DNA of 54,102 nucleotides from Ktedonobacterales bacterium (lineage in GTDB: Bacteria; Chloroflexota; Ktedonobacteria; Ktedonobacterales; JACDGC01). Positions 11,372-54,008 of this stretch are shown here, piece by piece. Numbering within the stretch: position 1 is the stretch's first letter; each line of letters starts with the position of its first letter. Where the stretch lies: NCBI GenBank assembly GCA_013815535.1, contig JACDGC010000002.1, forward strand, positions 1 through 54,102, in the 5' to 3' direction. Made by a program: the position numbers and the translations under genes. The notes under the pieces were generated by a model. The model worked only from the letters and a program-made list of their open reading frames with translations. It did no database searches and was not told the DNA's origin.

Positions 11372-11376
11372 ACCAA
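11372..11376. repeat. target-site duplication ACCAA (left copy)
   Basis: Identical pentamer immediately outside both transposon termini (11372-11376 and 40778-40782). Confidence 0.8.
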
Positions 11377-11444
11377 TGTCGGATCTCAGAATTCATGTCA
11401 CTAGTATCAGAATTCGTGGCACCACGTCTCAAAATTCGTGACAC
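11377..11444. repeat. tns-proximal end: three tightly phased TnsB-type binding-site repeats
   Basis: ATCTCAGAATTCATGTCAC (11383), GTATCAGAATTCGTGGCAC (11404) and GTCTCAAAATTCGTGACAC (11426), with 21-22 bp spacing. Confidence 0.8.
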
Positions 11445-11541
11445 TGGTCTCATCCTCAGGATCTCTGGCACAACCCCGCAATGTTCAAGCGGGAAGTAGT
11501 GAAGCGATTGCTGAGATTCCTGGCACACAAAGGAGGATGAG

Positions 11542-11596
11542 GTGATATGAATTCTGAGATCGGACATCCGGTGTCCGATCTCAGAATTCATGCGAC
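11542..11596. repeat. back-to-back transposon termini separated by 5 bp (internal junction)
   Basis: GTGATATGAATTCTGAGATCGGACA (ends 11566) + TCCGG + TGTCCGATCTCAGAATTCATGCGAC (starts 11572). This is a near-perfect 20+5+20 palindrome that includes the terminal ACA/TGT. Confidence 0.8.
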
Positions 11597-13877: not shown

Positions 13878-14806
13878 GCCCCCTTGAAGGCGGGGGTGAA
13901 GGGGTTGTCTTTGTTCTTGCCCATGATTGTCCCGGCCACACGCTCTTGATACGCCGCCGCGAGTAGTTCCAAAGAAATGCCATGGCACGGCGTGCGAATC
14001 GCGGCAAACGCCGCATGCCGCACGAGATGCATCACCCAGCCCAGGTAACCATTGGTGGCATAGAAGAAGCGATAGGCCATCGCTTCTTCGCCCAAGCCGC
14101 TGGGGTCGAGCGGTAACGCCGCATCGATGGTTCCCAGCAATTCACAGAATTCCGCAATGGTATCGTCCGGGCGAGCGCGATCCCACATGAAGGGGGTGAG
14201 CAGGCGCGGCGTGCCAAAACGCCGGTCGAGTTGGCTGTTGGCTGCGAAGATCTCCTGCATCTCCTGCGTGTGCCCAACGACGACCATCGGCACATGGGTT
14301 TCGAGTAAAATCGTCTTGAAGAAATCGGCCACCCGATGCGCGATTTGATGCTGCCGTTCTTTGTTGATGAGGTGCTGAAGTTCATCGATGATCACCATCT
14401 GGACTTGGCAGGCAGCCATCAGACGATAGATACGCATCGTCATGTTCCATTCCGTCCCGCGTGACGGGTTGGGATCGTGCAGCTTCGTCAGGATTGCCGC
14501 CGCCGCCGCTTTCATACTGGCATACGCCGGCACGATGACATAGAGATACGGAATGATCGTGGCCGTGGGAGTTTCTCGCTCGGGGGTGCGCGTCAGCCAA
14601 GTCCGTATCAAGGTCGATTTCCCCGCGCCGGTGTCGCCCATGATGGCAAGACACGGGGGCTCGTGGATACGGCTGGTGAGGCCGACCCGCGCGTACTGCG
14701 TGATCTCGCGGTACAGGGCATTAAACCGCTCATGCTCAATCAAGATGCTGTCGACCAGCGCGTAGCGCGCGTCGTCAGACAGGGCTTGCCATTCCTCGTG
14801 TTCCAT
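13874..14806 (-). CDS. tnsC: TnsC/TniB-type AAA+ transposition ATPase (310 aa)
   Basis: Walker A MGDTGAGKST and Walker B VQMVIIDELQHL. Size and position match TniB-like regulators. Confidence 0.85.
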   Translation of the reverse strand: MEHEEWQALSDDARYALVDSILIEHERFNALYREITQYARVGLTSRIHEPPCLAIMGDTGAGKSTLIRTWLTRTPERETPTATIIPYLYVIVPAYASMKAAAAAILTKLHDPNPSRGTEWNMTMRIYRLMAACQVQMVIIDELQHLINKERQHQIAHRVADFFKTILLETHVPMVVVGHTQEMQEIFAANSQLDRRFGTPRLLTPFMWDRARPDDTIAEFCELLGTIDAALPLDPSGLGEEAMAYRFFYATNGYLGWVMHLVRHAAFAAIRTPCHGISLELLAAAYQERVAGTIMGKNKDNPFTPAFKGA

Positions 14807-14809
14807 TAT

Positions 14810-17197
14810 TCAGACCTTTCGGCGCGGCAGCGTGTAGCTCACGGTCATCGTGGTAGGGCGCGCGGGAGGCGACAGCGGAACGGGAGCAGCCGACTCGACT
14901 GGTGCCATGGCCGCATCCGTTCCCGGTTTGCCACGCTTCTTGGGTTTGGGGGTCGGGGTGGCCTCCGGTTCGGCGGCAGGGAGGACCTCCAAGACGGGGG
15001 CCGCGACGTTGGCGAGCAACGTGACCCCTGCAACCATCTCAGGCAGCATGCTCCCATTGGTTGCGAGGGCGGCGATTCCCACCACCTCTGGGGACGCGAC
15101 CGTCGGTACCAGTGCGTCGCCGAAGGCGGGCGGAGTGGCCTGCGCGAGGGATAGCTCCTGGACCAGCGGGGCAGTACCTGCCGGGGGTGGCTGCAACCAC
15201 CCCGTGACCTGGAGATCGAACCAGCGCGCTGCACCCATGCGCGACTTCACCTGTTTCTTGCGGCGGAATTCATCCGTGATCTTGACATGGATGCGGTGCT
15301 TCGCTTCGAGCAAGGCTTCGAGATCAATGTCCTGGCGGAGTTCCTCGCGCGCGTACCGTTTGATCACGCGATGTTTCCACTGCGTGAGCTGGCGCGTGTA
15401 CTCTTGGAACTGGCGTGCCGCAGGGACTTCCAGATAGCGTTTGGTGAGCGGGTCCATGACCCAGATGCGCGCGAGGTCCCCCGGATTGTACTTGAACGAA
15501 ACCGCGATATCAACCAGGCGCTTCGCATCTCTGGTGCCTCTTCCCGGCTGCTGATCAAGGCGTGCCCGCAACCCCATGAGCGGGAGGCTAAAATAGCAGA
15601 TATCGTCAAACCAGATCCCCGTCCCCACAATGCAGCGGGTTTCGATGCGGGTGAGCAGCGTGAGCAGTTCCTCCCGATTCACCGGGAGGTGCGGCGTGAA
15701 ACGATCCACCAGGGCACGCTCCCACAGGCGGGCCGGCACCCCTTTCACGCGCCCGCGATGCGCGTCCTGGGTATAGACGTCGACAATCCACTGTATGCAG
15801 AGCTCCCACAAGCGATCCAAGGAGATGCAGGCATAGCGGGAGGGATCGTAATCGTCGCGCGCCAGGAAGTTGGAGAAGGTCGTCCCCGGCATAGTATGAA
15901 TCAGATCGGCCTGCATATCCCCGATGAACTTTTCGATCCCGCCTTTGAACCAGGGGGTACGGCGGGGCATACGGTGGACGGTGATTCCCAGTTGGTAACA
16001 GGCCAGTTCCACGTCGGTCGAGCGGAATTCGGGGCCGTTGTCGATGGCGAGCAACTCGGGAACGCCCCACGCCAAGTAGTCATGCTGGAGGCCAAACTGC
16101 GCCTTGAGGTGGGTCTTGGGCAGCATGCCGAAGCCCAGGCATTCCAGCACCGCACGCACGTTGGGGGGTTCGAACGAGATGCGCACCCCGGGCGGATAAT
16201 AGCTGTAGCGGTCGCGGAGCGCCGTAAATAATGGACGCCCAATTGGCAGCCCATCATCGGGATCAATCACGAGGTAATCGAGCTTCGTGTGGTCTTCTTC
16301 CCACCGTTCATTGGGACGTGTCGGCTCCGGGCCGCCATTGATGCCGGCATATTTGCGTTCGGTATGCGCGACGCCCAACCGTGCGATATCAATGTCTTCT
16401 TGATCCAACCGTTCGACGATCCGATACATCGTCGAACGGCTCGGCATGGGGATGTGCGTCTCCGCCGTGCGGGTCGTGTTTTTCGTAGCAATCCGGCTGC
16501 ACATCTCGTCATACGCTGTCTGGATCGTTGGCTGCTGGCGCTGCTTGTACACGTCTGTCAGGGCATCTTGAAAGGCGGTCTGGGCTTCGGGATGCAGGTG
16601 CGCTTTACGGCCTTGGCGTTCACGTCCGTGCCGCAGCGCGCGGGGATCGCCATGCGCGACGGTCAGCGCCTGTAACCACCGATAGACCGTCCGCAGCGCC
16701 AGCGTTGGCCGTCGTGCCGATGCCCCTTGCGTGGGATCGGTGCCTTTCGGTGCTGTGTGATGTGCATACGTGCGGAGCGTCAGCATCCAGGCTTCGGGTT
16801 GTTCATCGGCTTGCACCCTCAGCACTTCATCGATGCGGGCTTGGACCACCGCGTGCGTGCGGTGCCGTCGGGGGAGGGCGAGGAGTGGTTGACAGAACTG
16901 GTATTTTGCCCAGATGAGTATCCGCTCTGCTTCTGGCAGGAAATCCAGGTCGGTGAATGCATAGGATGTTGCCAGGGGCTGCGCGTCCTCCTGGCGCAGA
17001 TTGTTCCCGTGGAGCGCGAAGCGCAGCGTCCCGGCAAGCCAGGCATCGAGGAGGATCGCACGGGTCGTTCCGGTCTCATCATGCGTCATGAGATTGCGCG
17101 CGAAGATCGAGCCATCCCGCCCGGTGGCGATGATGCGATAGCCCACCCCTTGCAGGGTGTATTCCATGCCAGTTTCAAAGGCAACGGGTTGGGGCAT
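14810..17197 (-). CDS. tnsB: TnsB-type DDE (rve) transposase
   Basis: DDE triad context WEEDHTKLDYLVID / LAIDNGPEFRS / FKGGIEKFIG. ATG 17197 with GGAAAGGAG upstream. Pro/Ala-rich C-terminal tail. Confidence 0.9.
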   Translation of the reverse strand: MPQPVAFETGMEYTLQGVGYRIIATGRDGSIFARNLMTHDETGTTRAILLDAWLAGTLRFALHGNNLRQEDAQPLATSYAFTDLDFLPEAERILIWAKYQFCQPLLALPRRHRTHAVVQARIDEVLRVQADEQPEAWMLTLRTYAHHTAPKGTDPTQGASARRPTLALRTVYRWLQALTVAHGDPRALRHGRERQGRKAHLHPEAQTAFQDALTDVYKQRQQPTIQTAYDEMCSRIATKNTTRTAETHIPMPSRSTMYRIVERLDQEDIDIARLGVAHTERKYAGINGGPEPTRPNERWEEDHTKLDYLVIDPDDGLPIGRPLFTALRDRYSYYPPGVRISFEPPNVRAVLECLGFGMLPKTHLKAQFGLQHDYLAWGVPELLAIDNGPEFRSTDVELACYQLGITVHRMPRRTPWFKGGIEKFIGDMQADLIHTMPGTTFSNFLARDDYDPSRYACISLDRLWELCIQWIVDVYTQDAHRGRVKGVPARLWERALVDRFTPHLPVNREELLTLLTRIETRCIVGTGIWFDDICYFSLPLMGLRARLDQQPGRGTRDAKRLVDIAVSFKYNPGDLARIWVMDPLTKRYLEVPAARQFQEYTRQLTQWKHRVIKRYAREELRQDIDLEALLEAKHRIHVKITDEFRRKKQVKSRMGAARWFDLQVTGWLQPPPAGTAPLVQELSLAQATPPAFGDALVPTVASPEVVGIAALATNGSMLPEMVAGVTLLANVAAPVLEVLPAAEPEATPTPKPKKRGKPGTDAAMAPVESAAPVPLSPPARPTTMTVSYTLPRRKV

Positions 17198-17837
17198 CAG
17201 CGGCTCCTTTCCACGCGATGATCGTCTCGGCGAGATGCAGCGGCTGGGTGAGGTCGGCGGACAGGATGCCATCGTACAGCAGCGCCAGGACATGCGTGCG
17301 ATCTAGCAACGGATCGAGTTGGGGGCAGTGCTCCATGAGGGTGGCGATCGAGCACTGCCCCCCAATGTCGTGCATCACCCGGAGCACGATCTCCCGCACC
17401 TCCGGTGGCACGGGATGATGGGCATGACTCAGGAGCAGACGCAGATTGTCGAGCAGGGGGGCGAAAGGAAGAAGCGTGGCATCGGTCACCACCACGAACG
17501 TCCACTGCTGTGCGGCACACCATAGCCGCGCCGCCGTCCACTTGAGGGCATTTTTGGGGTCGCTTACCTGATGTTGCGGCTTGCATTCCACGAGGGTCGT
17601 GGTCCCGCTCCGCCAGCGCACGAGTACGTCAGGGGTGTAAGGATGATCGTGGTGATTGGCGCGGTAGCGAATAGTACAGGGCTGCTCCTCGTACCATACG
17701 ACCTCGGGGGCATACTCAATGAGGCGAATGTAACGTTCCTCAATCAGACTCTCGAAATGGACCATCCGCCCTAATTTGCGACTGGGGACACCACCAATGA
17801 TGTTGTGCCCAATCTGCTGCACCTGGCGTACAGGCAT
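17175..17837 (-). CDS. tnsA: TnsA endonuclease
   Basis: FESLIEERYIRLIE...YTPDVLVRW...TLVECKP (restriction-endonuclease-like E/D/K core). ATG 17837 is preceded by AGGAAAGGAGGAAAACG. The 3' end overlaps tnsB by 23 nt. Confidence 0.85.
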   Translation of the reverse strand: MPVRQVQQIGHNIIGGVPSRKLGRMVHFESLIEERYIRLIEYAPEVVWYEEQPCTIRYRANHHDHPYTPDVLVRWRSGTTTLVECKPQHQVSDPKNALKWTAARLWCAAQQWTFVVVTDATLLPFAPLLDNLRLLLSHAHHPVPPEVREIVLRVMHDIGGQCSIATLMEHCPQLDPLLDRTHVLALLYDGILSADLTQPLHLAETIIAWKGAADAPTRCL

Positions 17838-18150
17838 CGTTTTCCTCCTTTCCTGGCGCGGGTCTTCAGCACCATCAACGCATTCCCGCGCCTTTTTGTT
17901 GGATAGCGCCAAGAGGAGCACAGGGTAGCTGGGAAGGGCATGTCCGAGCATGATTGGTGGCCAGAAAGGCGGCGTGCATGGCATGCGCTTGTCCCCTCAT
18001 CTCTGCTTGGCATCGCAGGTTGGAAGCGCACGCCTCGCACTGCTGTTCCACCCGGGAAACGGTGCACTGCACAACGTTTCGATGTGCGGCCTAGATCATG
18101 CGCTTCATCCCCTGGCTAACCGCTCTGAGCATCTTGCACTTCAACCATGC

Positions 18151-40782: not shown

Positions 40783-41041
40783 GCTACCTGTATTTGTAGA
40801 TTTTCGGGATGTTGTGATTGCCTGGGCACGCTATCCCCTTTAGGCTCACAGGGCGACATTGTCGTATTTACCCTGGTTGCTATACAATCTGCTCTGCGAG
40901 AAGATGTTGTTAGCTTTTGCCGAGGGTGCCTGTGGTACCTGCCCTAAATCACTGCCCCATATTTTATTATCTGCATGAAGAAATACCGATAAAGGATAGC
41001 ATGTTATGGCCTCTTGTCCCTGGCGTAGAGCCATAAACGCA

Positions 41042-41082
41042 CCAGTTTTTGTGAGGTTGATTCAACCTCACAAAAAGCAAGC
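41042..41082. repeat. 41-bp inverted repeat, left copy (31-bp perfect palindrome T5-GTGAGGTTGA-T-TCAACCTCAC-A5 plus asymmetric arms)
   Basis: CCAGTTTTTGTGAGGTTGATTCAACCTCACAAAAAGCAAGC. The reverse complement of 46274-46314 matches 40/41. Confidence 0.75.
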
Positions 41083-45689: not shown

Positions 45690-46070
45690 TATGTTTCGAA
45701 CCTTCGCGTAAAATTTTTTACGTGAAGGTTCGAAAAGCAAGCGCATCAGCCCAGGAAACCCGTTCGAACTTTCGAGCAAATTACCATGATGGGATATTTT
45801 GCGAAGGATCGAACAATTTTATGCGAAGGTTCAAAAGAGTGGTGTACTTGGGTAGCTGGCTTTGTAAGAGCGGTAGACGTATTTTATGCGAGCCGATAGG
45901 TGCGTCAGCACTTACCCGCAACCAGTGAAATAGTTGCGAACCTTGGCGGACATCCTTGTGCGTGGAGGGTCGAACACTGGGCATGTGATTTCAGGAAATA
46001 TGTTCGGAACTTGTCCTCAAGCTCGCACGCCTATTTGGGAAGCGCAAGATCATCGGAACTTCGTGTCCTA
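45690..46070. repeat. dense array (at least 9 copies, both orientations) of the TTTACGCGAAGGTTCGAAA motif
   Basis: Includes a 42-bp near-palindrome, TTTCGAACCTTCGCGTAAAA-TT-TTTTACGTGAAGGTTCGAAA (45694-45735). Further copies lie at about 45761, 45798, 45817, 45944, 45958 and 46001. Confidence 0.65.
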
Positions 46071-46273: not shown

Positions 46274-46314
46274 GCTTGCTTTTTGTGAGGTTGATTCAAC
46301 CTCACAAAAACTGG
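46274..46314. repeat. 41-bp inverted repeat, right copy
   Basis: GCTTGCTTTTTGTGAGGTTGATTCAACCTCACAAAAACTGG. Confidence 0.75.
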
Positions 46315-46825
46315 GGGGTAATTGGCTCTGTGGCAGGGATAAGAGGCCATAATAGTCATGCCTAGCAATGGTATTCGTAGGCAATACCCGGCGTGATTTT
46401 GCTCTTGAAGCATGCACGCACTTGGTGGTACAATTCAGGCGTTCATTTTTTCTGGTCTGCACCTATCCAGGTTGGTGTTGCTGCCTTTGGCGCAGGTATC
46501 CAACGCAGCGTGAAGTTCCTTTGCTGACCTTGTCGCAGGTCCTTCACCCAGGGTGTTTGTGATAGCTCCCATGTTCTCTGCTGCATGTGCGCATTCAACA
46601 TGGCCTATCTTCCGCTCGGATGTTGCTGTCTCTGCTGCATGTGCGCAAACAGCACCTATGAGCTTTCCCGGCTGGTTCACCCTCGGTGTGAGGATCGTCT
46701 GTTGAACGTTTTCCATGAAGAAGGAGGAAGGTTCCCATCTCGCACATCTGTCACGCAGCCTAGCGAGTTTTCGCGTCATCGCTCCATCACTCTGTTTCCT
46801 GGGAAAGGAGTATCCTTCCGCACCT

Positions 46826-47278: not shown

Positions 47279-47309
47279 CAGCCGAACTTCCTCCGGGGGT
47301 TCGGCTTTT
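47279..47309 (+). terminator. intrinsic terminator
   Basis: AGCCGAAC-(11 nt)-GTTCGGCT followed by TTTT. Confidence 0.6.
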
Positions 47310-47756: not shown

Positions 47757-47765
47757 CTTGCGGTG

Positions 47766-47804
47766 ATGAGGCGGAGCTTTGTCTCCGCCTCATTTGCTTG
47801 TTTT
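47766..47804 (+). terminator. intrinsic terminator
   Basis: ATGAGGCGGAG-(6 nt)-CTCCGCCTCAT followed by TTGCTTGTTTT. Confidence 0.6.
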
Positions 47805-47828: not shown

Positions 47829-48149
47829 ATGGCAATGCGCGTTTGGCACCGCCGACACTCGTTGTTTGGTCTAGTCCCACAAGCGATGGATCCGGCGCTG
47901 TTTACCTGCGTGGCAGAATTGGCAACTGTGGATCCTGAACAGGCGTTTCGCTGGTCACAACATGCGGATCATGCTTGGCAGACGCAGCAGAATCGCGTCA
48001 TTCAATCCTTTGCTGCACACCCACGCTCGACGAGTGTGGGTGACATCTTGCAACAATGCTTGACCGGCACCTGCCTGCTCGTGTGTGCTGAAGGGTTTAC
48101 CGAACTGCCCGGCTGGGTATTTCCTGACCCAACGTCATCTTCTTGGTAA
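47829..48149 (+). CDS. hypothetical protein (106 aa)
   Basis: GAAGGAG lies 9 nt upstream. Starts MAMRVWHRRH... No family recognised. Confidence 0.55.
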   Translation: MAMRVWHRRHSLFGLVPQAMDPALFTCVAELATVDPEQAFRWSQHADHAWQTQQNRVIQSFAAHPRSTSVGDILQQCLTGTCLLVCAEGFTELPGWVFPDPTSSSW

Positions 48150-48260
48150 CGTGAGCGGAAGCTCTTTGTGGGACTCGCCAAAGTTATTGGTGAGTCCCAT
48201 TGTTTTGGGTCCCTTCCTGTACGCACATCGTGCTTTCGCCCTGCAGCGCTCGCTCCCCTC

Positions 48261-48348
48261 TTCCTATCCGTGGCTGCTGCTGCCACGCTGATGAGCCACC
48301 TTGAAACGGTTTCAGGGTTGGCACGCCTGAGCACAGGCGAAATAGGAA
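48261..48348 (+). ncRNA. hammerhead-ribozyme-like motif A (type III topology, expanded stem II)
   Basis: UUCCUAUC|CGUGGC(UGCUGCU)GCCACG-CUGAUGA-G[43 nt]C-GAAA-UAGGAA. Stem III is 7 bp (48261-67 / 48342-48) and stem I is 6 bp (48269-74 / 48282-87). Cleavage triplet AUC, with the predicted cut after 48268. Confidence 0.6.
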
Positions 48349-48456
48349 TCGCGGCGGACTGATGTTTACGTCCGCTTGCTCATGCACACCTCGACCACGG
48401 TGCTGGTTGAGAAAGGTTGGCGCGATCATGCTGTCTGTTTCCTGGTTACACGACAT

Positions 48457-48765
48457 GGCTGGGAGGCCACTGCCCCCAGTGAAAGGAGAATGGCCATGGC
48501 TTACGAGAAAATCTTGGGCGATATCATCGGCTTAGTGATATTGACGGGACGTTACCCTGCGTCCCCAAGTGAGAGGGAGTGGTACCTGTACAGCGCATTC
48601 GTCCGAAGGTTATTTGATAACTGGAAAAGCAATGGGGGGCTACCGCCACCTACTGATGAGGAATGTGAAGCCGCGCTCGCTGTTCGAGAGCGATTAATGG
48701 AAAGTATCTCCTCCGTTATTCAAGTCCCAGTAGCGTAGTTTGTCAATGGCGGTGGCCTCCCAGCC
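48457..48765 (+). repeat. 18-bp inverted repeat pair bracketing the 80-aa cistron (long-range RNA clamp candidate)
   Basis: GGCTGGGAGGCCACTGCC (48457-48474) pairs with GGCGGTGGCCTCCCAGCC (48748-48765): 17 Watson-Crick pairs plus 1 U-G on the + strand transcript. Confidence 0.6.
48496..48738 (+). CDS. hypothetical protein (80 aa)
   Basis: GAAAGGAGAA Shine-Dalgarno. ATG 48496 (or 48490). Ends ...QVPVA with the shared 3' sequence GTAGCGTAGTTTGT. Confidence 0.55.
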   Translation: MAYEKILGDIIGLVILTGRYPASPSEREWYLYSAFVRRLFDNWKSNGGLPPPTDEECEAALAVRERLMESISSVIQVPVA

Positions 48766-48936
48766 CTGTTGTGTTCCCCGCGCGGGCTGCCATCAGTATT
48801 TCCCCCGTGTTCATCGTCCCCCAGAATCCACCACCCCTTCACGCTGCCCGGCTGTAAATAGCAGCCATGCGGCATTGTGCTGTCGTTTGTGGGAAGGCGC
48901 GGTCCTCCCCATTTACCACCACCATTCCACGCCGCG

Positions 48937-49312
48937 ATCGGAGAGGCGGGCCACCGCCGACCCATCGAAAGGAGAACTCAATGCTGAAAGACACTGCGAA
49001 TTACGAGAAAGTTCCCCAAATTCTGGTGGCGGCTTTGGTCGTCATGAGGAGGGTCAAACGAATATGGGCGGATACGATGCCGCCTGAAATGGCCGCCGAA
49101 GCGATGCGGCGGTTTTCTGGGGATGATCTCCTGGCGCTTGCTCTGTGCGAGCTCGAAAAGATAGGTGCCCTTGATAATCCCACCTCTGACCAGGTGTGGA
49201 TGGCAAACCGTTGGCTCGACGTGTTGGTAGAGTGGTCGTTTGCTGAGGCTCGTCAATGTGGTGAGCCGATCGTAGCGTAGTTTGTTTATCGGCGGTGGTC
49301 CGCCTCTCCGAT
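48937..49312 (+). repeat. 24-bp inverted repeat pair bracketing the 99-aa cistron (long-range RNA clamp candidate)
   Basis: ATCGGAGAGGCGGGCCACCGCCGA (48937-48960) pairs with TCGGCGGTGGTCCGCCTCTCCGAT (49289-49312): 23 Watson-Crick pairs plus 1 G-U on the + strand transcript. Confidence 0.65.
48981..49280 (+). CDS. hypothetical protein (99 aa)
   Basis: GAAAGGAGAA Shine-Dalgarno 6 nt upstream. Ends ...EPIVA with the shared GTAGCGTAGTTTGT. Confidence 0.55.
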   Translation: MLKDTANYEKVPQILVAALVVMRRVKRIWADTMPPEMAAEAMRRFSGDDLLALALCELEKIGALDNPTSDQVWMANRWLDVLVEWSFAEARQCGEPIVA

Positions 49313-49324
49313 TGCCGCATAGCA

Positions 49325-49396
49325 CATCCATCCACGGCTGTTGCTGCCGTGCTGATGAGTCCCGCCGGACCCGCCTGAGCACAGGCGAAATGGATG
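49325..49396 (+). ncRNA. hammerhead-ribozyme-like motif B (type III topology, expanded stem II)
   Basis: CAUCCAUC|CACGGC(UGUUGCU)GCCGUG-CUGAUGA-G[26 nt]C-GAAA-UGGAUG. Stem III is 7 bp (49325-31 / 49390-96) and stem I is 6 bp (49333-38 / 49346-51). The predicted cut is after 49332. Confidence 0.6.
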
Positions 49397-49444
49397 GCAG
49401 AATCCCTGGCATGCTGGGTGACTCGCCCAGTCGTTGCCGCCATG

Positions 49445-49478
49445 AAAACCCGCACGCATCCCCATGCGTGCGGGTTTT
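49445..49478 (+). terminator. strong terminator-like hairpin immediately upstream of the csrA-like RBS
   Basis: AAAACCCGCACGCAT-CCCC-ATGCGTGCGGGTTTT. It ends 10 nt before GGAGG and 19 nt before ATG 49498. Confidence 0.6.
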
Positions 49479-49497
49479 GGCGTGTCATGGAGGAACC

Positions 49498-49839
49498 ATG
49501 ATCATCGTGCGACGGCCCGGCCAGGCCGTCTTCCTCGGCGACTACATGCTGGAACTCACCAGTACTGGTGGTCGCTTCGCGCGCTGGACCCTCACCGTCC
49601 CTCCGGAGATTCCCGTGCGCAAAGGGGACATGTTGCTTGCCCCCTGTCGGACCCGCAGCGTGCTGTTCTTTGGTCTCGATCCAGGCGATGCGGTCTGGAT
49701 CGACGACCGCATTGCGGTCGAACTCCGCCACTGTTCATCCCAGCACGCCACGCTCAGCGTGACGGCCCCCCGGCAAATCCTGGTGCTGCGCCAGGAACTG
49801 CTCACCTCCGCCACACCCTACCAGTACGCTCGCCGCTGA
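49498..49839 (+). CDS. CsrA-like protein with an internal tandem duplication of the CsrA fold (113 aa)
   Basis: Repeat 1 is MIIVRRPGQAVFLGDYMLELTSTGGRFARWTLTVPPEIPVRKGDML. Repeat 2 is VLFFGLDPGDAVWIDDRIAVELRHCSSQHATLSVTAPRQILVLRQELL. Both align to the CsrA pattern MLILTRRVGE.l.IGD.i.v.vl.v.g..VrlGi.AP..v.v.R.E. Confidence 0.65.
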   Translation: MIIVRRPGQAVFLGDYMLELTSTGGRFARWTLTVPPEIPVRKGDMLLAPCRTRSVLFFGLDPGDAVWIDDRIAVELRHCSSQHATLSVTAPRQILVLRQELLTSATPYQYARR

Positions 49840-49851
49840 GCGCACGCCAGA

Positions 49852-49889
49852 GCATGACCAGCGCGCCCAAACACCCGCGCTGGTCATGC
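49852..49889 (+). terminator. 13-bp stem-loop after the csrA-like gene (no U tract)
   Basis: GCATGACCAGCGC-(12 nt)-GCGCTGGTCATGC. Confidence 0.35.
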
Positions 49890-50337: not shown

Positions 50338-50450
50338 TACGGTCGGGGCAGAGGCAACTCTGTCCCGCTGCGCGTGTTCTCTTCACCGGACCCTCGCATC
50401 GTTCCCTCGGCATACCCCCCTAAAACAGCGCGTAATTGAAGGAGAAGCTG

Positions 50451-50726
50451 ATGACCTCTGTTCGTGTGTTGATTGCTGCCAGCATGTTCGAGGTGGCCCT
50501 GTTTTGGGCCTACGGGTTGGGCGTTCCCCTCCCTGCCCTGGTTCTGGTGGTCATCCTCGGCCATCCGTTGACGATTCCCCTGATCGCGCATGTCCCGTTG
50601 TGGACCTCGGTGATCACCTTTGGGATGCTGATGGGAGGGGAGCGTCACGTTCCCTTTACCAACAGTTTGGTGGCACACCCTATCGGCTGTTTCTCGTCTT
50701 GGGGGCGGGTCTCTTTACGGGACTGA
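50451..50726 (+). CDS. small membrane protein; probably continues by a +1 frame change into 50650-50854
   Basis: GAAGGAG lies 7 nt upstream. There are 2-3 TM segments in this frame. The overlapping +1 frame (track ORF 50504..50854) encodes further clean TM helices (LFLVLGAGLFTGLTCVCLTILWFALIVLADGAFIVVLLL) but has no start of its own. Confidence 0.5.
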   Translation: MTSVRVLIAASMFEVALFWAYGLGVPLPALVLVVILGHPLTIPLIAHVPLWTSVITFGMLMGGERHVPFTNSLVAHPIGCFSSWGRVSLRD

Positions 50727-50960
50727 CCTGTGTCTGCCTCACCATCCTGTGGTTCGCGTTGATTGTCCTGGCTGACGGTGCCTTTATCGTGGTGCTGTTG
50801 CTCAGGCTGCTTGGTGGTCAGGCGATGCGGTGGTGGCATCGTGTGGCGCGATAACGGTCGCTTGTCTGGTAGATGCGTCGGGGGAATGATGCGAGCGCCT
50901 GGTGGCGTTCGGTTCGGAGTGGGTAGGAAGCGATTTTGTCCACTCTGGGTAATGGAAGTT

Positions 50961-50991
50961 GGGCGACCACAAGATGGTCGCCCTTTGTGTT
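50961..50991 (+). terminator. intrinsic terminator
   Basis: GGGCGACCA-(5 nt)-TGGTCGCCC followed by TTTGTGTT. Confidence 0.55.
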
Positions 50992-51019: not shown

Positions 51020-51289
51020 ATGTTGGTACTTCGTCGTAAGGCCGGTGAGGTCGTGGTCCTTAATGGCGTCATCAAGGTGTATGTGCTCGCTGTCGAGGGC
51101 GAGCGCGTCAAGTTAGGTTTCGATGCGCCACCGGATGTGGTCATCGTACGGCAAGAACTCCTCGACAATGATGGCACACCAGCGCAGAGCAAGGCAAACT
51201 TTTGTGTGCGTATCGTCGAGCATCTGCGGGGGTGGTTGGCTGCTTGGGGCAGTCGCCGTGGTGCTGTTCTGGTTGCGGTCAGCCGCTAA
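51020..51289 (+). CDS. csrA: CsrA-family RNA-binding protein paralog
   Basis: MLVLRRKAGEVVVLNGVIKVYVLAVEGERVKLGFDAPPDVVIVRQELL closely follows the CsrA consensus. AGGAGG lies 7 nt upstream, within a GCCCT-CGTA-AGGGC hairpin context. Confidence 0.75.
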   Translation: MLVLRRKAGEVVVLNGVIKVYVLAVEGERVKLGFDAPPDVVIVRQELLDNDGTPAQSKANFCVRIVEHLRGWLAAWGSRRGAVLVAVSR

Positions 51290-51372
51290 CGGGCATGCTC
51301 GGCGTGTGCGTTGGTTTCGTGGGAGCACTGGTGCCAGCACTGGCACCGGTGCTCCTGAAGGGAGCATCTCCC

Positions 51373-51840
51373 ATGGCGTTTTCACCACGAGTGGATGTCG
51401 CGGCGCTCAAAGCCGCGCACCCGCTCGAAGATATCGTCGGGCTAACCGTCAATCTCGTGCGGGATGGCAAAGCCTTGAAGGGTCTGTGCCCGTTCCATCA
51501 CGAGCGGACGCCCTCCTTTTTCGTCTTCCCCGACCCCATCACTGGGGGCCGCTGGCACTGCTTTGGTGCCAGTTGTGCCCGTGGCGGAGATGTCTTCACC
51601 TATTTACACCTCCGCGATGGTCTGAGCTTTCGTGAAGCCGTCGCGTATTTGCAACAATGTGACCCAGCTACCCCCCTGTATTCGCTAGTCGAGTTGAGCA
51701 GCAGACGCTCCAAAAATGCTGGTGAGAAAACGGCAGCACCTTGCGGGAAAGTGTTAGTCAAACTACGGCAGCAGTGGCCATGTTTTCCCCAAAGTGTTAC
51801 TCGAAGTGGTTGCCATTTGGTTGCTCATCTGGTACACTAG
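51373..51840 (+). CDS. CHC2 zinc-finger (DnaG/primase-type) protein, probably 3'-truncated by the IS21 insertion
   Basis: LKGLCPFHHERTPSFFVFP...WHCFGASCARGGDVFTYL is the CHC2 primase zinc finger. Only 155 aa, and the tail is read into the IS end. Confidence 0.7.
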   Translation: MAFSPRVDVAALKAAHPLEDIVGLTVNLVRDGKALKGLCPFHHERTPSFFVFPDPITGGRWHCFGASCARGGDVFTYLHLRDGLSFREAVAYLQQCDPATPLYSLVELSSRRSKNAGEKTAAPCGKVLVKLRQQWPCFPQSVTRSGCHLVAHLVH

Positions 51841-53975
51841 GAGGAATACCGATCCGGTCTTGGGAAAGGAAGGTTCCCGGCCATGATCACCGAAGAAGAG
51901 CGCGAACAGATCCGGCGCGCCTACTTTCTTGACCATCACAGTGTTCGCCAGATTGCCCGGGATCTCCATCGCAGCGGGCGCACGGTGGCCAATGCGCTGT
52001 TTCCCGCCCCCACGGTGCCCTCGGCTCCGCGTCGCCCCCGCTCTGCTCCCGTCTTTGGACCCTTCCAGGCACGGGTGGAAACGTTCTTGCTCCAGAATGA
52101 GCGCCTCCCGCGCAAACAACGCTTCACCGCCCGCAAGATCTTTGAGCTGCTGCGTGCCGAGGGCTACACCGGCTGCGAGTCCCTGATTCGCGCCTTCAAA
52201 GCCGCCTGGCAGCGGGAACGGCATGCCCCCGACACCTTTCTCCCCTTGCAATTCGAACCCGGTCAGGATGCCCAAGTCGATTGGGGAGAGGCCCAGGCGA
52301 CCATTAATGGCATCCCCCAGACGGTGCAGTTCTTTGTCATGCGGCTGTGCTACTCACGGCGCCTCTTTGTCATGGCCTTCCCCAGTCAGAAACAGGAAAG
52401 CTTCTTTTACGGGCATGTACTGGCCTTTGCCCATTTCGGCGGCGTCCCCACGCGCATCAGCTACGACAATCTGGCGACCGCCGTCAAGTTGGCCTTTGAC
52501 CACGGGCGGACGCGACACGAAAACCGCACGTTTGTCTCGTTTCGCAGCCATTACCTCTTCGACTCCCATTTCTGCACGCCTGGTGAGGGTCATGAGAAGG
52601 GCGGCGTCGAAAGTGCCGTGGGATATGCGCGCCGCAATTTCCTCGTCCCGCCGCCCGACGTCGCCTCCTTTGACGCACTCAACCTCCATCTGCTACAAGC
52701 GTGCTTGCGCGACGACCAGCGCAAGGTCGCCCGTACCCAACCAACCATCGGCGAAAACTGGGAAGAAGAACGCCCGCTGCTCATCCCCTTACCGCCCTTT
52801 GCCTACGATTGCTGTACCGTCACGACCGCACAACTCACGCCCTACAGCCAAGCCACCTTTGAGACCAACCGCTATTCCGTGCCCGTTCAGCGCGCTCGTC
52901 GGGACGTGACCGTCAAGGCCTACCCCTTCCATGTCGATCTCCTCGATCACACCACGCTGCTGGCGCGGCATCCGCGCTGTTACGACCGCGAGCAAGATAT
53001 TTTTGATCCGTTGCATTACCTGGCCTTGCTCGAACAGCGTCCGGGAGCGTTTGACTACGCGAAACCCATACAGGCTTGGCGCAAGGGCTGGCCCCCGTCC
53101 TACCACCTCATGCTGCGCAACTTGCAGGACAAGTGGCCGGGGGGGCGCGGGGTGCAGGAATTCGTGCGCATCCTGCGCCTTCACCAGGAATATCCTGCCG
53201 CTCTCGTCCAGTCAGCCATCGAACAGGCCATTGCCTACGGATGTATCCATCTCGACGGCGTCTTGCATTGTCTCCACCAACTCATTGAGCCGTCGCCGCC
53301 TGAGCCGATGCTCCCCACCACCGATCCGTTGCCCTTGCGCGAAGTGGGTACGCAGCCCATTGACCTAGCCCGCTACGAATTGCTGCTCAAACGTCCTGGC
53401 TAAAGGAGATCGCCGTCATGGAGTCGCAAGAGTTACTCGAAAGCTACCTGCGCCAGCTGCATCTGCCCACGTTTTTGCAGAACTATCAGGCGTTTGCCCA
53501 GGATGCGGCACGCGGGAATATGTCCAATGAGCGGTTTCTCCTGGCCTTGTGTGAAGCGGAAGTGCTGCAACGCGATGCCAAGCGTATCGCGGCGGCGGTT
53601 GCCTACGCGCGCGTGCCCATCTTCAAAGACTTGGCGAGTTTTGATTTTAGCCTGATTCAGGGTGTCACGAAAGCGCGCGTCCTCGAACTCATGCAGGGCG
53701 GCTACATGACCCAGGCAGAAACCGTCATCTTGATTGGGATTCCGGGGCTCGGTAAATCCCATATCGCCACGGTCCTCGCGCTGGCCGCGTGCCAGCAAGG
53801 GAAACGAGTGCGCTTTTGGGGTACGGCGAAACTGGTCGAAGCGTTGGAAACCGCCCGCAAGGATCTGCGCTTGTCGAAATTCCTCGCCAGTCTCGCCAAG
53901 CATGATCTCATCGTGCTCGACGAGTTTGGCTTTCTCCCTTTTTCTCCCGATGGCTCCCAACTGTTGTTTCAAGTC
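51742..53975 (+). mobile_element. IS21-family insertion sequence, 3'-truncated (left boundary approximate)
   Basis: An istA-istB gene pair. The candidate left terminus TGTTAGTCAAACTACGG near 51742 is inferred, not proven. IstB similarity stops after ...LLFQV at 53975. Confidence 0.7.
51883..53403 (+). CDS. istA: IS21-family transposase IstA
   Basis: N-terminal HTH (EEEREQIRRAYFLDHHSVRQIARDL), a DDE core (QVDWGE ... SYDNLATAV ... GHEKGGVESAV) and a conserved C-terminal domain. Confidence 0.9.
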   Translation: MITEEEREQIRRAYFLDHHSVRQIARDLHRSGRTVANALFPAPTVPSAPRRPRSAPVFGPFQARVETFLLQNERLPRKQRFTARKIFELLRAEGYTGCESLIRAFKAAWQRERHAPDTFLPLQFEPGQDAQVDWGEAQATINGIPQTVQFFVMRLCYSRRLFVMAFPSQKQESFFYGHVLAFAHFGGVPTRISYDNLATAVKLAFDHGRTRHENRTFVSFRSHYLFDSHFCTPGEGHEKGGVESAVGYARRNFLVPPPDVASFDALNLHLLQACLRDDQRKVARTQPTIGENWEEERPLLIPLPPFAYDCCTVTTAQLTPYSQATFETNRYSVPVQRARRDVTVKAYPFHVDLLDHTTLLARHPRCYDREQDIFDPLHYLALLEQRPGAFDYAKPIQAWRKGWPPSYHLMLRNLQDKWPGGRGVQEFVRILRLHQEYPAALVQSAIEQAIAYGCIHLDGVLHCLHQLIEPSPPEPMLPTTDPLPLREVGTQPIDLARYELLLKRPG

Positions 53976-54008
53976 TGCTCACCAAGACCAGCAAACTACA
54001 GACCATGA
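53418..54008 (+). pseudogene. istB: IS21-family helper ATPase IstB, truncated after Walker B
   Basis: LLALCEAEV..R, Walker A GIPGLGKSH and Walker B LIVLDEFGFLP are present. The expected ...LLFQLISRRYE...SN continuation is replaced by CSPRPANYRP-stop. Confidence 0.8.

Follow-up and report, generated by a model that had tools for sequence, protein, structure and literature searches.

Clusters of hammerhead ribozymes around one gene or a short block of genes in prophages were described by Perreault et al. 2011 (PMC3088659). In that work, native fragments of about 2 kb from three tandem clusters were transcribed in vitro, with product sizes that fit cleavage by all ribozymes, and the A. tumefaciens cluster, cloned and transcribed in E. 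coli, also cleaved itself in vivo; the idea of circular or spliced RNA was raised as well, and such products were not detected. The purpose of these gene-flanking clusters, known since 2011, is not yet demonstrated. Long-range pairing in transcripts is described for two other systems: RNase III cleaves two large stems which flank the 16S and 23S rRNA in their polycistronic precursor (PMC6582327), and in icaR the pairing of 5' and 3' UTRs controls translation through RNase III (PMC3868564).

Here we report the analysis of a locus in which predicted ribozyme cuts are joined by a second, independent feature of mRNA ends, i.e. a long 5'-3' helix for each cistron. The locus lies in a window of 54,102 nt, by which we mean the whole stretch analysed (contig JACDGC010000002.1 of a Ktedonobacterales bacterium). 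On the whole, two hammerhead-type motifs on the same strand enclose two small ORFs (Table 1), and the predicted cuts after C48268 and C49332, both following AUC, lie 1,064 nt apart and would free the segment 48269-49332, as the first-pass annotation proposed. A repeat search of the window also bears out that each small ORF, together with its own Shine-Dalgarno site, is bracketed by an inverted repeat, below called a clamp. The arrangement suggests cleavage of the transcript into individual messages with protected ends. The same annotation knew of no described bacterial system with this combined architecture, which is overstated in one part: gene blocks flanked by ribozymes are known (Perreault et al. 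2011, PMC3088659), and the clamps around single cistrons appear to be new, being found only in the window and one near-identical relative, the ENA contig L002.

Table 1. Coordinates of the features of the locus and of its surroundings in the window
Feature	Position	Strand	Description
Hairpin (repeat I8)	48168-48200	+	14-bp, U-rich tail; after small gene 47829-48149; 68 nt upstream of first cut
Putative RNA-processing module	48261-49396	+	two hammerhead-type motifs around two clamped small ORFs
HH1	48261-48348	+	four helices; predicted cut after C48268; 74.5 bits (model R1)
HH1 stem III	48261-48267/48342-48348		
HH1 stem I	48269-48274/48282-48287		7-nt loop ending GCU
HH1 core CUGAUGA	48288-48294		
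HH1 hairpin IIa	48295-48322		variable
HH1 linker	48323-48324		
HH1 hairpin IIb	48325-48329/48334-48338		conserved; loop AGCA
HH1 GAAA	48339-48342		
Leader between HH1 and clamp 1	48349-48447	+	holds hairpin GCGGAC...GUCCGC; 3 differences in ~97 nt vs L002
Clamp 1, 5' arm (repeat I2)	48448-48474	+	27 nt, 89% complementary; 26/27 pairs with P>0.9
ORF1 GGAG	48485-48488		10 nt after end of clamp 1 5' arm
ORF1	48496-48738	+	80 aa; 82 aa from in-frame ATG at 48490
Clamp 1, 3' arm	48748-48774	+	starts 9 nt past ORF1 stop codon
Spacer between cassettes	48775-48930	+	C-rich; most variable: 21 differences in 156 nt vs L002, including a 1-nt deletion
Clamp 2, 5' arm (repeat I1)	48931-48960	+	30 nt, 90% complementary; 26/30 pairs with P>0.9
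ORF2 GGAG	48971-48974		10 nt after end of clamp 2 5' arm
ORF2	48981-49280	+	99 aa
Clamp 2, 3' arm	49289-49318	+	starts 8 nt past ORF2 stop codon; ends 14 nt before HH2 cut
HH2	49325-49396	+	four helices; predicted cut after C49332; 74.4 bits (model R1)
HH2 stem III	49325-49331/49390-49396		
HH2 stem I	49333-49338/49346-49351		
HH2 core	49352-49358		
HH2 hairpin IIa	49359-49370		
HH2 hairpin IIb	49373-49377/49382-49386		
HH2 GAAA	49387-49390		
Hairpin (repeat I4)	49445-49478	+	perfect 15-bp, then UUUUGG (terminator-like); between HH2 and next gene; identical in L002
CsrA-like protein gene	49498-49839	+	113 aa; last gene of the block common with L002
Candidate third clamp (repeat I6)	50384-50409/50879-50904	+	26 nt: 21 Watson-Crick, 3 G.U, 2 mismatches; -40.6 kcal/mol

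Hammerhead-type motifs with a split stem II

The two motifs have the layout ...AUC/C-stem I-G CUGAUGA G...C GAAA U... (the slash marks the predicted cut), with the conserved catalytic core CUGAUGA...GAAA, the A15.1-U16.1 pair, the paired positions 1.1-2.1 and an H17 residue at the predicted cleavage site present in both. The covariance model R1 finds exactly two matches in the window, both at about 74 bits, and the next best reaches 14.6 bits. Comparison of the window with Rfam, at the gathering score and at E<=10, gives no hammerhead or other ribozyme, and the weak matches there (SNORA64, SorX and others) are attributed to chance. The first-pass reading as hammerheads holds in that the core is complete and the family covaries, and needs correction in one respect: where a canonical hammerhead has a single stem II, these motifs have two hairpins, IIa and IIb, a departure from every canonical model. 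A canonical stem II with the pairs 10.2/11.2 and 10.3/11.3, hinted at by the Rfam alignment, was rejected, as these pairs are lost in L019 and L021 and both IIa and IIb covary. A branched stem II closed by the single G10.1-C11.1 pair is a possible alternative to the two-hairpin model. It is also possible that the AGCA loop of IIb pairs with the GCU of the stem I loop, recalling the tertiary contacts between stems I and II of hammerheads.

Between HH1 and HH2, stems I, IIa and III differ, with two compensatory pair differences in stem I. Compared with L002, HH1 shows two compensatory pair changes (48271/48285 and 48273/48283), and in L002, which is covered about 2x, stem III of HH1 carries two mismatches; HH2 has no differences at all. 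A 90-aa ORF on the - strand (48184-48456) was discarded, since it overlaps HH1, whose stem I has compensatory changes.

By a pattern scan, the same four-helix form is found in about 20 phage contigs. In the 17 family members compared, all of stem I is paired (100%) and its six pairs all covary, and hairpin IIb is likewise 100% paired, with covariation in three of five pairs; overall, stems I, IIb and III covary strongly, IIa covaries too, and the observed covariation score is reached by none of 500 shuffles. The core columns are invariant in the 17 members, with CUGAUGAG and CGAAA being fixed by the search pattern. Against the Rfam Hammerhead_3 model the phage relatives score 28.7-35 bits (E about 1e-3 for those at 33-35 bits) vs a gathering threshold of 48.5, and eleven phage loci compared with Rfam at the gathering score have no match. 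The four-helix hammerhead is a structural variant missed by current Rfam models, and, if active, it would widen the known tolerance of the hammerhead core. In the species-representative genomes, the exact ribozyme pattern has no match, and a degenerate pattern has nine, all with stem I unpaired and considered as chance. The phage relatives L014 and L020 have the same layout of ribozyme, gene and ribozyme as found here, and in the phage relatives a GGGGGCUUCGGCCCCC hairpin lies 5 nt before the cut.

Clamps around two small ORFs

The existence of the clamps is confirmed, and they are longer than the 18 bp and 24 bp given earlier, with arms of 27 nt and 30 nt. As stated for the 18-bp and 24-bp cores, each has exactly one non-Watson-Crick position, which is G.U in the + sense; the full arms of each clamp have two G.U pairs and one true mismatch in this sense. 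All four transition-type mismatches are G.U in the + sense, and seven of eight when the candidate third clamp is included, a bias with P ~0.06 and ~0.035, respectively, in a small sample. This asymmetry alone is no proof of an RNA role, because single-stranded DNA also tolerates G.T. The clamps lie far outside what chance would give: the best 24-nt stretch has 23 of 24 Watson-Crick pairs, whereas none of 300 dinucleotide shuffles exceeds 20, and only three inverted repeats of clamp quality occur in the whole 54-kb window. In the + sense the duplex energies of clamps 1 and 2 amount to -54.2 and -63.8 kcal/mol, vs -46.3 and -57.3 in the - sense; for the whole RNA the + and - sense energies are -442.8 and -398.6 kcal/mol, respectively. 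The predicted fold of the + strand RNA contains both clamps, whether as minimum-free-energy or as centroid structure, with pair probabilities above 0.9 in processed and unprocessed contexts and also in L002. Together with the conservation of the arms in L002, the + sense G.U pairs, energies and pair probabilities favour the RNA-level structure which had been proposed for the clamps.

Clamps 1 and 2 have a common 10-bp core, GGCCACYGCC/GGCGGTGGYC, and their outer parts differ in sequence with the pairing kept in both. The distance from the 5' arm to the Shine-Dalgarno site (10 nt) is the same in both cassettes, that from the stop codon to the 3' arm is 8-9 nt, and the spacing from GGAG to the start codon is 6-7 nt. 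According to a terminator-like scan, the other small genes of the operon each have a local 3' hairpin in place of a clamp. The candidate third clamp encloses GAAGGAGAAG and a membrane-protein-like ORF starting at 50451; its arms are unrelated in sequence to clamps 1 and 2, and its Watson-Crick score exceeds 100 of 100 shuffles, a score counting G.U being reached by 5 of 100.

The relative L002 has the block 48253-49888 in common with the window, and about 6.6% of positions differ across this block. The differences amount to 13.5% in the spacer between the cassettes, and there are none in the 114 nt of the clamp arms (P ~4e-4 for such identity by chance), so that the inverted repeats are conserved in this homologous locus. 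At the level of sequence comparison, this absence of substitutions beside so diverged a spacer indicates selection on the arms themselves. The evidence for the clamps comes from paralogue comparison and conservation, because there are only two near-identical instances, the window and L002. The 112 kb of phage loci with the same ribozyme type contain no inverted repeat of clamp quality.

The common ends of the two cassettes are present as described, namely the 5' UTR CCCA..GAAAGGAGAA (family D7) and the 3' end GTAGCGTAGTTTGT (family D8); the two proteins also both have YEK close to the N-terminus and VA at the C-terminus, and the cassettes look like diverged paralogues, in accordance with the first description. 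Three helices are predicted for ORF1 with low confidence; the ORF2 model is a helical bundle (pLDDT 80), with nothing below E=1 in the PDB by Foldseek. Between ORF2 and L002, 18 of 34 differences are in third codon positions, a pattern that fits coding sequence. When ORF1, ORF2 and the CsrA-like protein were compared with 5.8 billion proteins, only the window itself and L002 matched; a HMMER scan of ORF2 against 1.84 billion representatives gave no true homologue, and neither ORF has a match in Pfam or PHROGs. The DNA pattern of the cassette ends has only chance matches in viral contigs (e.g. glycine-rich coding sequence and a phage gene that resembles a peptidase by eye), and 90 matches in JGI metagenomes, none related to the window by blastn or tblastn. 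An 81-aa ORF on the - strand (48720-48965) was rejected, being frameshifted in L002 and located in the most variable region.

In the neighbourhood, two CsrA-family genes follow downstream in the same operon, and there are a primase Zn-ribbon gene and an IS21 transposase, with Tn7-like genes 30 kb away. The block common with L002 starts exactly at HH1 and ends past the hairpin behind the CsrA-like gene, which argues for modular exchange. The CsrA paralogues, primase Zn-ribbon gene, IS21 and this mosaic block suggest a mobile element. Among the ORFs scanned there is no integrase and no phage structural gene, and neither PLSDB plasmids nor INPHARED phages match the operon by blastn. The terminator-like hairpins at 48168-48200 and 49445-49478 raise a question over the amount of read-through transcript.

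Predicted processing of the transcript and rival readings

Our preferred reading, to which we give a probability of about one half, is that the clamps are RNA-level end-pairing stems for processing or stabilisation in a ribozyme-flanked module, by analogy with the RNase III stems of rRNA operons. The locus would be an RNA-processing module in a + strand operon of small genes, within a mobile-element-like island. The two hammerhead-type ribozymes would cleave the polycistronic RNA at the two predicted sites, a layout which is that of the hammerhead clusters flanking prophage genes, and in the freed RNA of ~1.06 kb a helix of 27-30 bp would close each cistron, its strands placed just 5' of the Shine-Dalgarno site and 8-9 nt beyond the stop codon. 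These helices may define each cistron as its own folding and processing unit. A flanking duplex of about 20 bp or more characterises RNase III stems, and the clamps, with 27 and 30 bp, would be long enough for an RNase III substrate, as in the stems flanking 16S and 23S rRNA. They may also shield the RNA ends from exonucleases, with a possible effect on mRNA half-life. As clamp 2 ends shortly before the HH2 cut, it may take the role of the local 3' hairpin which precedes the hammerhead cut in the phage relatives. The Shine-Dalgarno sites and start codons are predicted to be single-stranded and translation would still be possible; since a terminating ribosome would halt at the foot of the helix, translation and clamp would be compatible. 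The locus supports the idea that such ribozymes make discrete, end-protected mRNAs, and is a compact test case of ~1.1 kb for it; the design is also of possible interest to synthetic biologists as natural insulator parts.

Hok-type toxin mRNAs are kept inert by fold-back pairing, and it is conceivable, if unlikely, that the 5'-3' helices here control translation or decay through a factor such as the downstream CsrA-like protein. The icaR precedent, the two CsrA-family genes and the GGA motifs in the Shine-Dalgarno regions (GAAAGGAGAA) and 5' arms would agree with such control; however, the predicted structures leave the Shine-Dalgarno sites and start codons open, so the clamps would not mask initiation as in icaR and hok, and no antisense RNA or CsrA-site hairpin is evident. 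ORF1 and ORF2 exceed typical type I toxins in size, and the ORF2 model is a helical bundle. Another thought, which we consider equally unlikely, denies the repeats any RNA role and takes them as a scaffold of duplication or recombination, i.e. as boundaries of tandem duplication, sites of module exchange, or single-stranded DNA hairpins of a conjugative element. The cassettes are clearly paralogous with common ends and diverged ORFs, the limits of the L002 block show modular exchange, the primase Zn-ribbon gene, CsrA paralogues and IS21 fit a plasmid or integrative conjugative element, and + strand single-stranded DNA would likewise tolerate G.T wobbles. Yet duplication accounts for direct repeats and not for complementary arms of 27-30 bp whose outer sequence differs, and the unchanged arms beside the spacer indicate selection on the arms. 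Moreover, the single-strand promoter or initiation hairpins known to us are contiguous, unlike the clamps, and are not 27-bp stems around loops of 270-330 nt.

DNA inversion switches (invertons) would make each repeat pair the recombination site of an invertible segment of ~330-390 bp, whose inversion would turn a single small gene round with respect to the operon promoter and give phase variation gene by gene. Invertons typically have inverted repeats of 18-30 bp around a few hundred bp, a geometry that the clamps fit, and the common core of both clamps could act as a recombinase site. We nevertheless hold this to be distinctly unlikely: no serine or tyrosine recombinase is found among the ORFs scanned, with only the IS21 transposase nearby and Tn7-like genes 30 kb off, and the orientation is identical in the window, the Logan contig L001 and L002 at the assembly level. 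The G.U bias and greater stability of the helices in the + sense, the tuning of arm positions to Shine-Dalgarno sites and stop codons, the unrelated arm sequences of the candidate third clamp, and the flanking ribozyme motifs, which point to RNA processing at this locus, all speak against inversion as well. Two other categories were considered. An integron attC, which was rejected, would take an imperfect hairpin of 57-141 nt downstream of each ORF and an IntI integrase; here the ORF sits between arms separated by 273-328 nt, with no RYYYAAC/GTTRRRY cores and no integrase seen. For a retron, no reverse transcriptase is found among the ORFs scanned.

Hammerhead cleavage leaves 5'-OH and 2',3'-cyclic phosphate ends, which an RtcB-type ligase might join into a circular two-gene mRNA of 1,064 nt, a natural counterpart of engineered Tornado or viroid-like RNAs. 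The circular RNA considered in the first-pass annotation is pure speculation, as nothing in the sequence joins the two cut ends, and we regard it as very improbable. In its favour, the end chemistry is established, engineered circularisation by ribozyme and RtcB exists, both Shine-Dalgarno sites are internal so that a circle would still be translatable, and the same possibility was raised for the clustered prophage hammerheads, although similar clusters gave no circular or spliced products (Perreault et al. 2011, PMC3088659). Here no helix unites the ends, and the predicted fold pairs only 4 nt of the 3' end with the HH1 core. The stem III strands differ between HH1 (UUCCUAU/AUAGGAA) and HH2 (CAUCCAU/AUGGAUG), so a ligated junction would be without a good stem III, the chimeric junction having only 2+2 pairs; in addition, the clamps close the cistrons separately and not the whole segment, and no RtcB gene is found among the ORFs scanned. 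Viroid-like and retrozyme circles have identical ribozyme copies, so that ligation of a monomer re-forms the ribozyme, and a rod-like or branched genome fold; such a circle was rejected here, with HH1 and HH2 non-identical, the junction stem III defective, and the predicted fold made of two closed coding domains and no rod. A wider and still quite improbable conception is that of a natural closed-loop mRNA system, with either monocistronic mRNAs circularised by the helix or an RtcB-ligated, covalently circular two-gene mRNA; in a non-covalent circle, the terminating ribosome would be passed straight back to the Shine-Dalgarno site. If true, bacteria would here have their first natural equivalent of the engineered, ribozyme-assisted circular RNAs, and the long-unexplained hammerhead clusters of mobile elements would gain a function.

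Comparison with described systems

Returning to the reading as end-pairing stems in a ribozyme-flanked module, we compare the locus with the described systems. The Tornado design (used in 10.1101/2023.07.11.548538) has an RNA flanked by two self-cleaving ribozymes leaving ligatable ends, as is predicted here; there a stem juxtaposes the ends for RtcB, whereas here the helices close internal units and there is no terminal stem. With the type III hammerhead (RF00008), the motifs have in common the core C3-A9, G12-A14, A15.1-U16.1 and C17, the covariation of stems I and III, and an open stem III; they differ in that a variable hairpin, a linker of 2-4 nt and a conserved 5-bp hairpin with AGCA loop replace stem II, and in the cleavage triplet, which is AUC vs GUC. 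The prophage hammerhead clusters are similar in their same-strand motifs about 1 kb apart around small uncharacterised genes, in a setting that is mobile-element-like here, and in the predicted processing of polycistronic RNA into shorter mRNAs; what differs here is the split stem II, giving four helices, and the 27-30 bp 5'-3' helix of each cistron, which none of the 112 kb of related phage loci has. In both icaR (PMC3868564) and hok the 5' and 3' untranslated ends of one mRNA pair over a long range, as predicted here; there the ribosome-binding region or a translational activator becomes hidden in this way, whereas here the Shine-Dalgarno site is predicted to stay free and the helix, with 27-30 bp, is much longer. 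Like the RNase III stems of rRNA (PMC6582327), each unit of the polycistronic precursor has a long-range inverted repeat forming a helix of at least 20 bp; in contrast to them, what the helices enclose here is protein-coding, with cistrons of 240-300 nt, and the outer limits are predicted to be set by ribozymes.

Clamp helices around the two small genes

The inverted repeats that the first-pass annotation placed around the two small genes are recovered by the repeat search, and they are longer than the 18-bp and 24-bp cores quoted there (see the table). Each core contains one non-Watson-Crick position, which is indeed a G.U pair in the + sense; taken at full length, either helix has a single true mismatch and two G.U pairs in this sense. 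Also borne out are the claimed common ends of the two cassettes (each a small ORF with its clamp), namely CCCA..GAAAGGAGAA 5' of the start codon and GTAGCGTAGTTTGT spanning the stop codon. The inner 10 bp are alike between clamps 1 and 2, and the outer 8-20 bp differ, being complementary in both. The spacing is equal in both cassettes, with 10 nt from the end of the 5' arm to GGAG and 8-9 nt from the stop codon to the 3' arm; the end of clamp 2 lies 14 nt from the HH2 cut.

The clamp repeats are not explained by chance. The best 24-nt clamp window has 23 Watson-Crick pairs, compared with a maximum of 20 in 300 dinucleotide shuffles; in the whole 54-kb window only one other, unrelated repeat (11375-11568) is of clamp quality, and none is present in 112 kb of phage DNA with the same ribozyme type. 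In addition, a candidate third clamp encloses the next gene with a GAAGGAGAAG site, a membrane-protein-like ORF starting at 50451, and its Watson-Crick score exceeds those of all 100 shuffles of its 1.4-kb surroundings. In this gene hydrophobic, transmembrane-like stretches continue in a second frame up to the stop codon 50854, so a frameshift near the G-run 50693-50703 may exist.

Folding of the 1,064-nt + strand RNA predicts both clamps in the minimum-free-energy and the centroid structures, with pair probabilities above 0.9 for 26 of 27 positions in clamp 1 and 26 of 30 in clamp 2, in the processed as well as the longer unprocessed RNA; the corresponding counts for L002, the ENA metagenome contig that is the sole relative of the block, are 25 of 27 and 26 of 30. 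The + sense is favoured over the - sense both for the whole RNA (-442.8 versus -398.6 kcal/mol) and for the two clamp duplexes (-54.2 and -63.8 versus -46.3 and -57.3 kcal/mol). Neither the Shine-Dalgarno sites nor the start codons are paired in the predicted structures.

Features of the locus and its surroundings (+ strand coordinates) and differences from L002
Feature	Position	Extent and pairing	Differences from L002	Remarks
HH1	48261-48348			predicted cut after C48268
HH2	49325-49396		0	predicted cut after C49332
Clamp 1	48448-48474 / 48748-48774	27 nt, 89% complementary, arms 273 nt apart	0 in 114 nt (four arms of clamps 1 and 2)	repeat search
Clamp 2	48931-48960 / 49289-49318	30 nt, 90% complementary, arms 328 nt apart	as clamp 1	repeat search
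Candidate third clamp	50384-50409 / 50879-50904	26 nt, 21 Watson-Crick and 3 G.U pairs		arms unrelated to clamps 1 and 2
Leader		~97 nt	3	
ORF1	48496-48738		8	
Spacer		156 nt	21	
ORF2	48981-49280		34, 18 in third codon positions	
Hairpin after small gene	49445-49478		0	+ strand operon
Other hairpins after small genes	47280-47306, 47765-47794, 48168-48200, 49854-49888, 50961-50983			+ strand operon
CsrA-family genes	49498-49839, 51020-51289			one operon
DnaG-type Zn-ribbon ORF	51295-51840			directly before istA/istB
IS21 istA/istB	51883-54008			
Unrelated inverted repeat	11375-11396 / 11547-11568			only other of clamp quality

A mosaic module in a run of small genes

Among 5.8 billion proteins, ORF1, ORF2 and the CsrA-like protein have homologues from one source only, the 4.5-kb contig L002, and ORF1 and ORF2 are orphans. 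The match is limited to 48253-49888 against L002 1541-3184, at 93% identity; its start is about 15 nt upstream of the HH1 cut and its end past the hairpin behind the CsrA-like gene. Since the flanks on the two sides are unrelated, the block is an exchangeable module, mosaic in nature and bordered by structured RNA elements. With about 108 differences the block rate is ~6.6%, at which zero changes in the 114 arm nucleotides have a calculated P of ~4e-4. As the arms are identical in L002, no clamp covariation can be shown from it. In HH1 the stem I pairs 48271/48285 and 48273/48283 are changed on both sides, and stem III has two mismatches in L002, a contig of 2x coverage.

The module is embedded in a series of small + strand genes spanning ~46.7 to 51.8 kb, among them two CsrA-family genes and a DnaG-type Zn-ribbon ORF. 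IS21 istA/istB comes next, and its insertion may have truncated the primase gene. The Logan contig L001 stops within IS21. Most of the other small genes have a local 3' hairpin, mostly with a U-rich tail, the exceptions being the clamped ORF1 and ORF2. One of the two CsrA-family genes encodes a 59-residue N-terminal extension, and this extended form has one homologue only among the 5.8 billion proteins.

Elsewhere the window contains a Tn7-like transposition module, genes for metal and arsenic resistance, and a phosphate transporter. The unrelated inverted repeat adjoins the Tn7-like module at 11673-17984 (TniQ, TniB and TnsA-like genes and a large unassigned ORF) and is probably related to a transposon end. 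A 72-nt inverted repeat of 86% identity (41004-41075 and 46281-46352) flanks a 5.2-kb block of CrcB-Usp, ChrB, Na/Ca-exchanger and cation-efflux genes, and its copies may mark the termini of a transposable unit; the right copy contains the palindrome TTTTTGTGAGGTTGATTCAACCTCACAAAAA (46281-46311), the first 30 nt of which match 41047-41076 exactly. Just upstream of the small-gene operon, 45690-46070 holds an array of repeats and palindromes with TTCGAAC, for example TTTCGAACCTTCGCGTAAAA and its inverted copy, which look like iterons or operators.

A four-helix hammerhead family

Both ribozyme motifs of the window run in the order stem III 5' strand, AUC (cut), stem I, CUGAUGA, hairpin IIa, a 2-nt linker, hairpin IIb, GAAA and stem III 3' strand. 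Stem I has 6 bp and a 7-nt loop ending in GCU, IIb is GCCUG-AGCA-CAGGC in both, and IIa is a variable hairpin; between HH1 and HH2 two pairs in stem I are compensatory, and stems III and IIa are unrelated. The hammerhead rule of Eckert et al. is kept in these motifs, but in stem II the strands belonging to the CUGAnGA and GAAA blocks pair with partners of their own and not with each other. Complementarity exists between loop AGCA of IIb and the (U)GCU that ends loop I, both sequences being fixed by the search pattern; pairing between them could replace the usual tertiary contact of stems I and II. A 13-nt complementarity, kept in L002, is also seen between 49191-49203 inside ORF2 and 49328-49340, which comprises the HH2 stem III 5' strand and the start of stem I; such an alternative pairing could mask the cleavage site as long as ORF2 is untranslated.

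A degenerate pattern built from the invariant motif parts gives only chance matches in 185,579 representative genomes, all with stem I unpaired, and 21 loci in IMG/VR viral contigs, all 21 with stem I perfectly paired. The four-helix layout is found in 20 of these 21, L014 being a canonical three-stem hammerhead; the split-stem-II family includes, besides HH1 and HH2, the phage loci L003, L013, L015-L026 and L028-L032. Across 17 distinct aligned sequences, 100% of the cells of stem I and of IIb are paired, and compensatory changes affect 6 of 6 and 3 of 5 pairs respectively; the inner pairs of stem III covary. The covariation score is reached by none of 500 shuffles, and the signal is lost when partners are shifted by 1-3 columns. 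The covariance model from the family alignment has exactly two matches in the window (74.5 and 74.4 bits; the next is 14.6), where an Rfam search detects no hammerhead even at E<=10. For four phage relatives Rfam Hammerhead_3 gives sub-threshold matches of 28.7-35 bits (gathering score 48.5; lowest E 4e-4), in which IIa and IIb together are taken as a giant stem II loop. The 10.2/11.2 and 10.3/11.3 stem II pairs implied by this alignment are not maintained across the family, and covariation of both IIa and IIb makes two separate hairpins the better supported model.

Among the phage relatives, single genes are found between hammerheads. In L020, for example, a gene of ~180 codons lies between an upstream canonical hammerhead and a downstream four-helix one; a GGGGGCUUCGGCCCCC hairpin precedes the four-helix cut by 5 nt, and the next Shine-Dalgarno site comes directly after this second ribozyme. 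Three hammerheads occur within 2 kb in L014.

Reading of the clamps and comparison with known systems

The most economical reading, to which we give a probability of about 0.5, is that the clamps act in RNA as end-pairing stems. By analogy with rRNA stems the helices might serve as RNase III substrates; they leave the translation signals free, and clamp 2 stands in the place of the protective 3' hairpin of the phage relatives. The geometry also fits DNA inversion switches, which we consider quite unlikely given that the ORFs scanned near the locus include no recombinase, that all assemblies have one orientation, and that the clamp mismatches are biased to G.U and the arms are placed relative to Shine-Dalgarno sites and stop codons. 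A circular RNA is very improbable, with no end-joining helix and with different stem III strands in HH1 and HH2. A scaffold for duplication or recombination, or a structure of single-stranded DNA, is unlikely, and the same holds for a regulatory fold-back acting with the CsrA-like proteins.

The first-pass annotation knew of no described bacterial system with the combined architecture; the ribozyme-flanked gene block by itself is a known arrangement. Perreault et al. reported three tandem hammerhead clusters whose in vitro transcription products are sized as if all ribozymes cleave, one of them also self-cleaving in vivo in E. coli, and proposed processing into gene-length mRNAs; spliced or circular products were mentioned but not detected (PMC3088659). 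Unlike those clusters, the window locus adds one long helix per cistron. The stems flanking 16S and 23S rRNA are RNase III stems (PMC6582327), and like them the clamps are long enough for this enzyme. For the four-helix hammerhead we found no description in the searchable literature, which is not proof of novelty; the form, missed by Rfam at the gathering score, is apparently new. Already known are clusters of hammerheads at genes of mobile elements and the long-range stems by which rRNA precursors are processed; the combination of outer ribozymes with one long 5'-3' helix per protein-coding cistron, the clamps occurring in only two near-identical instances, is apparently new.
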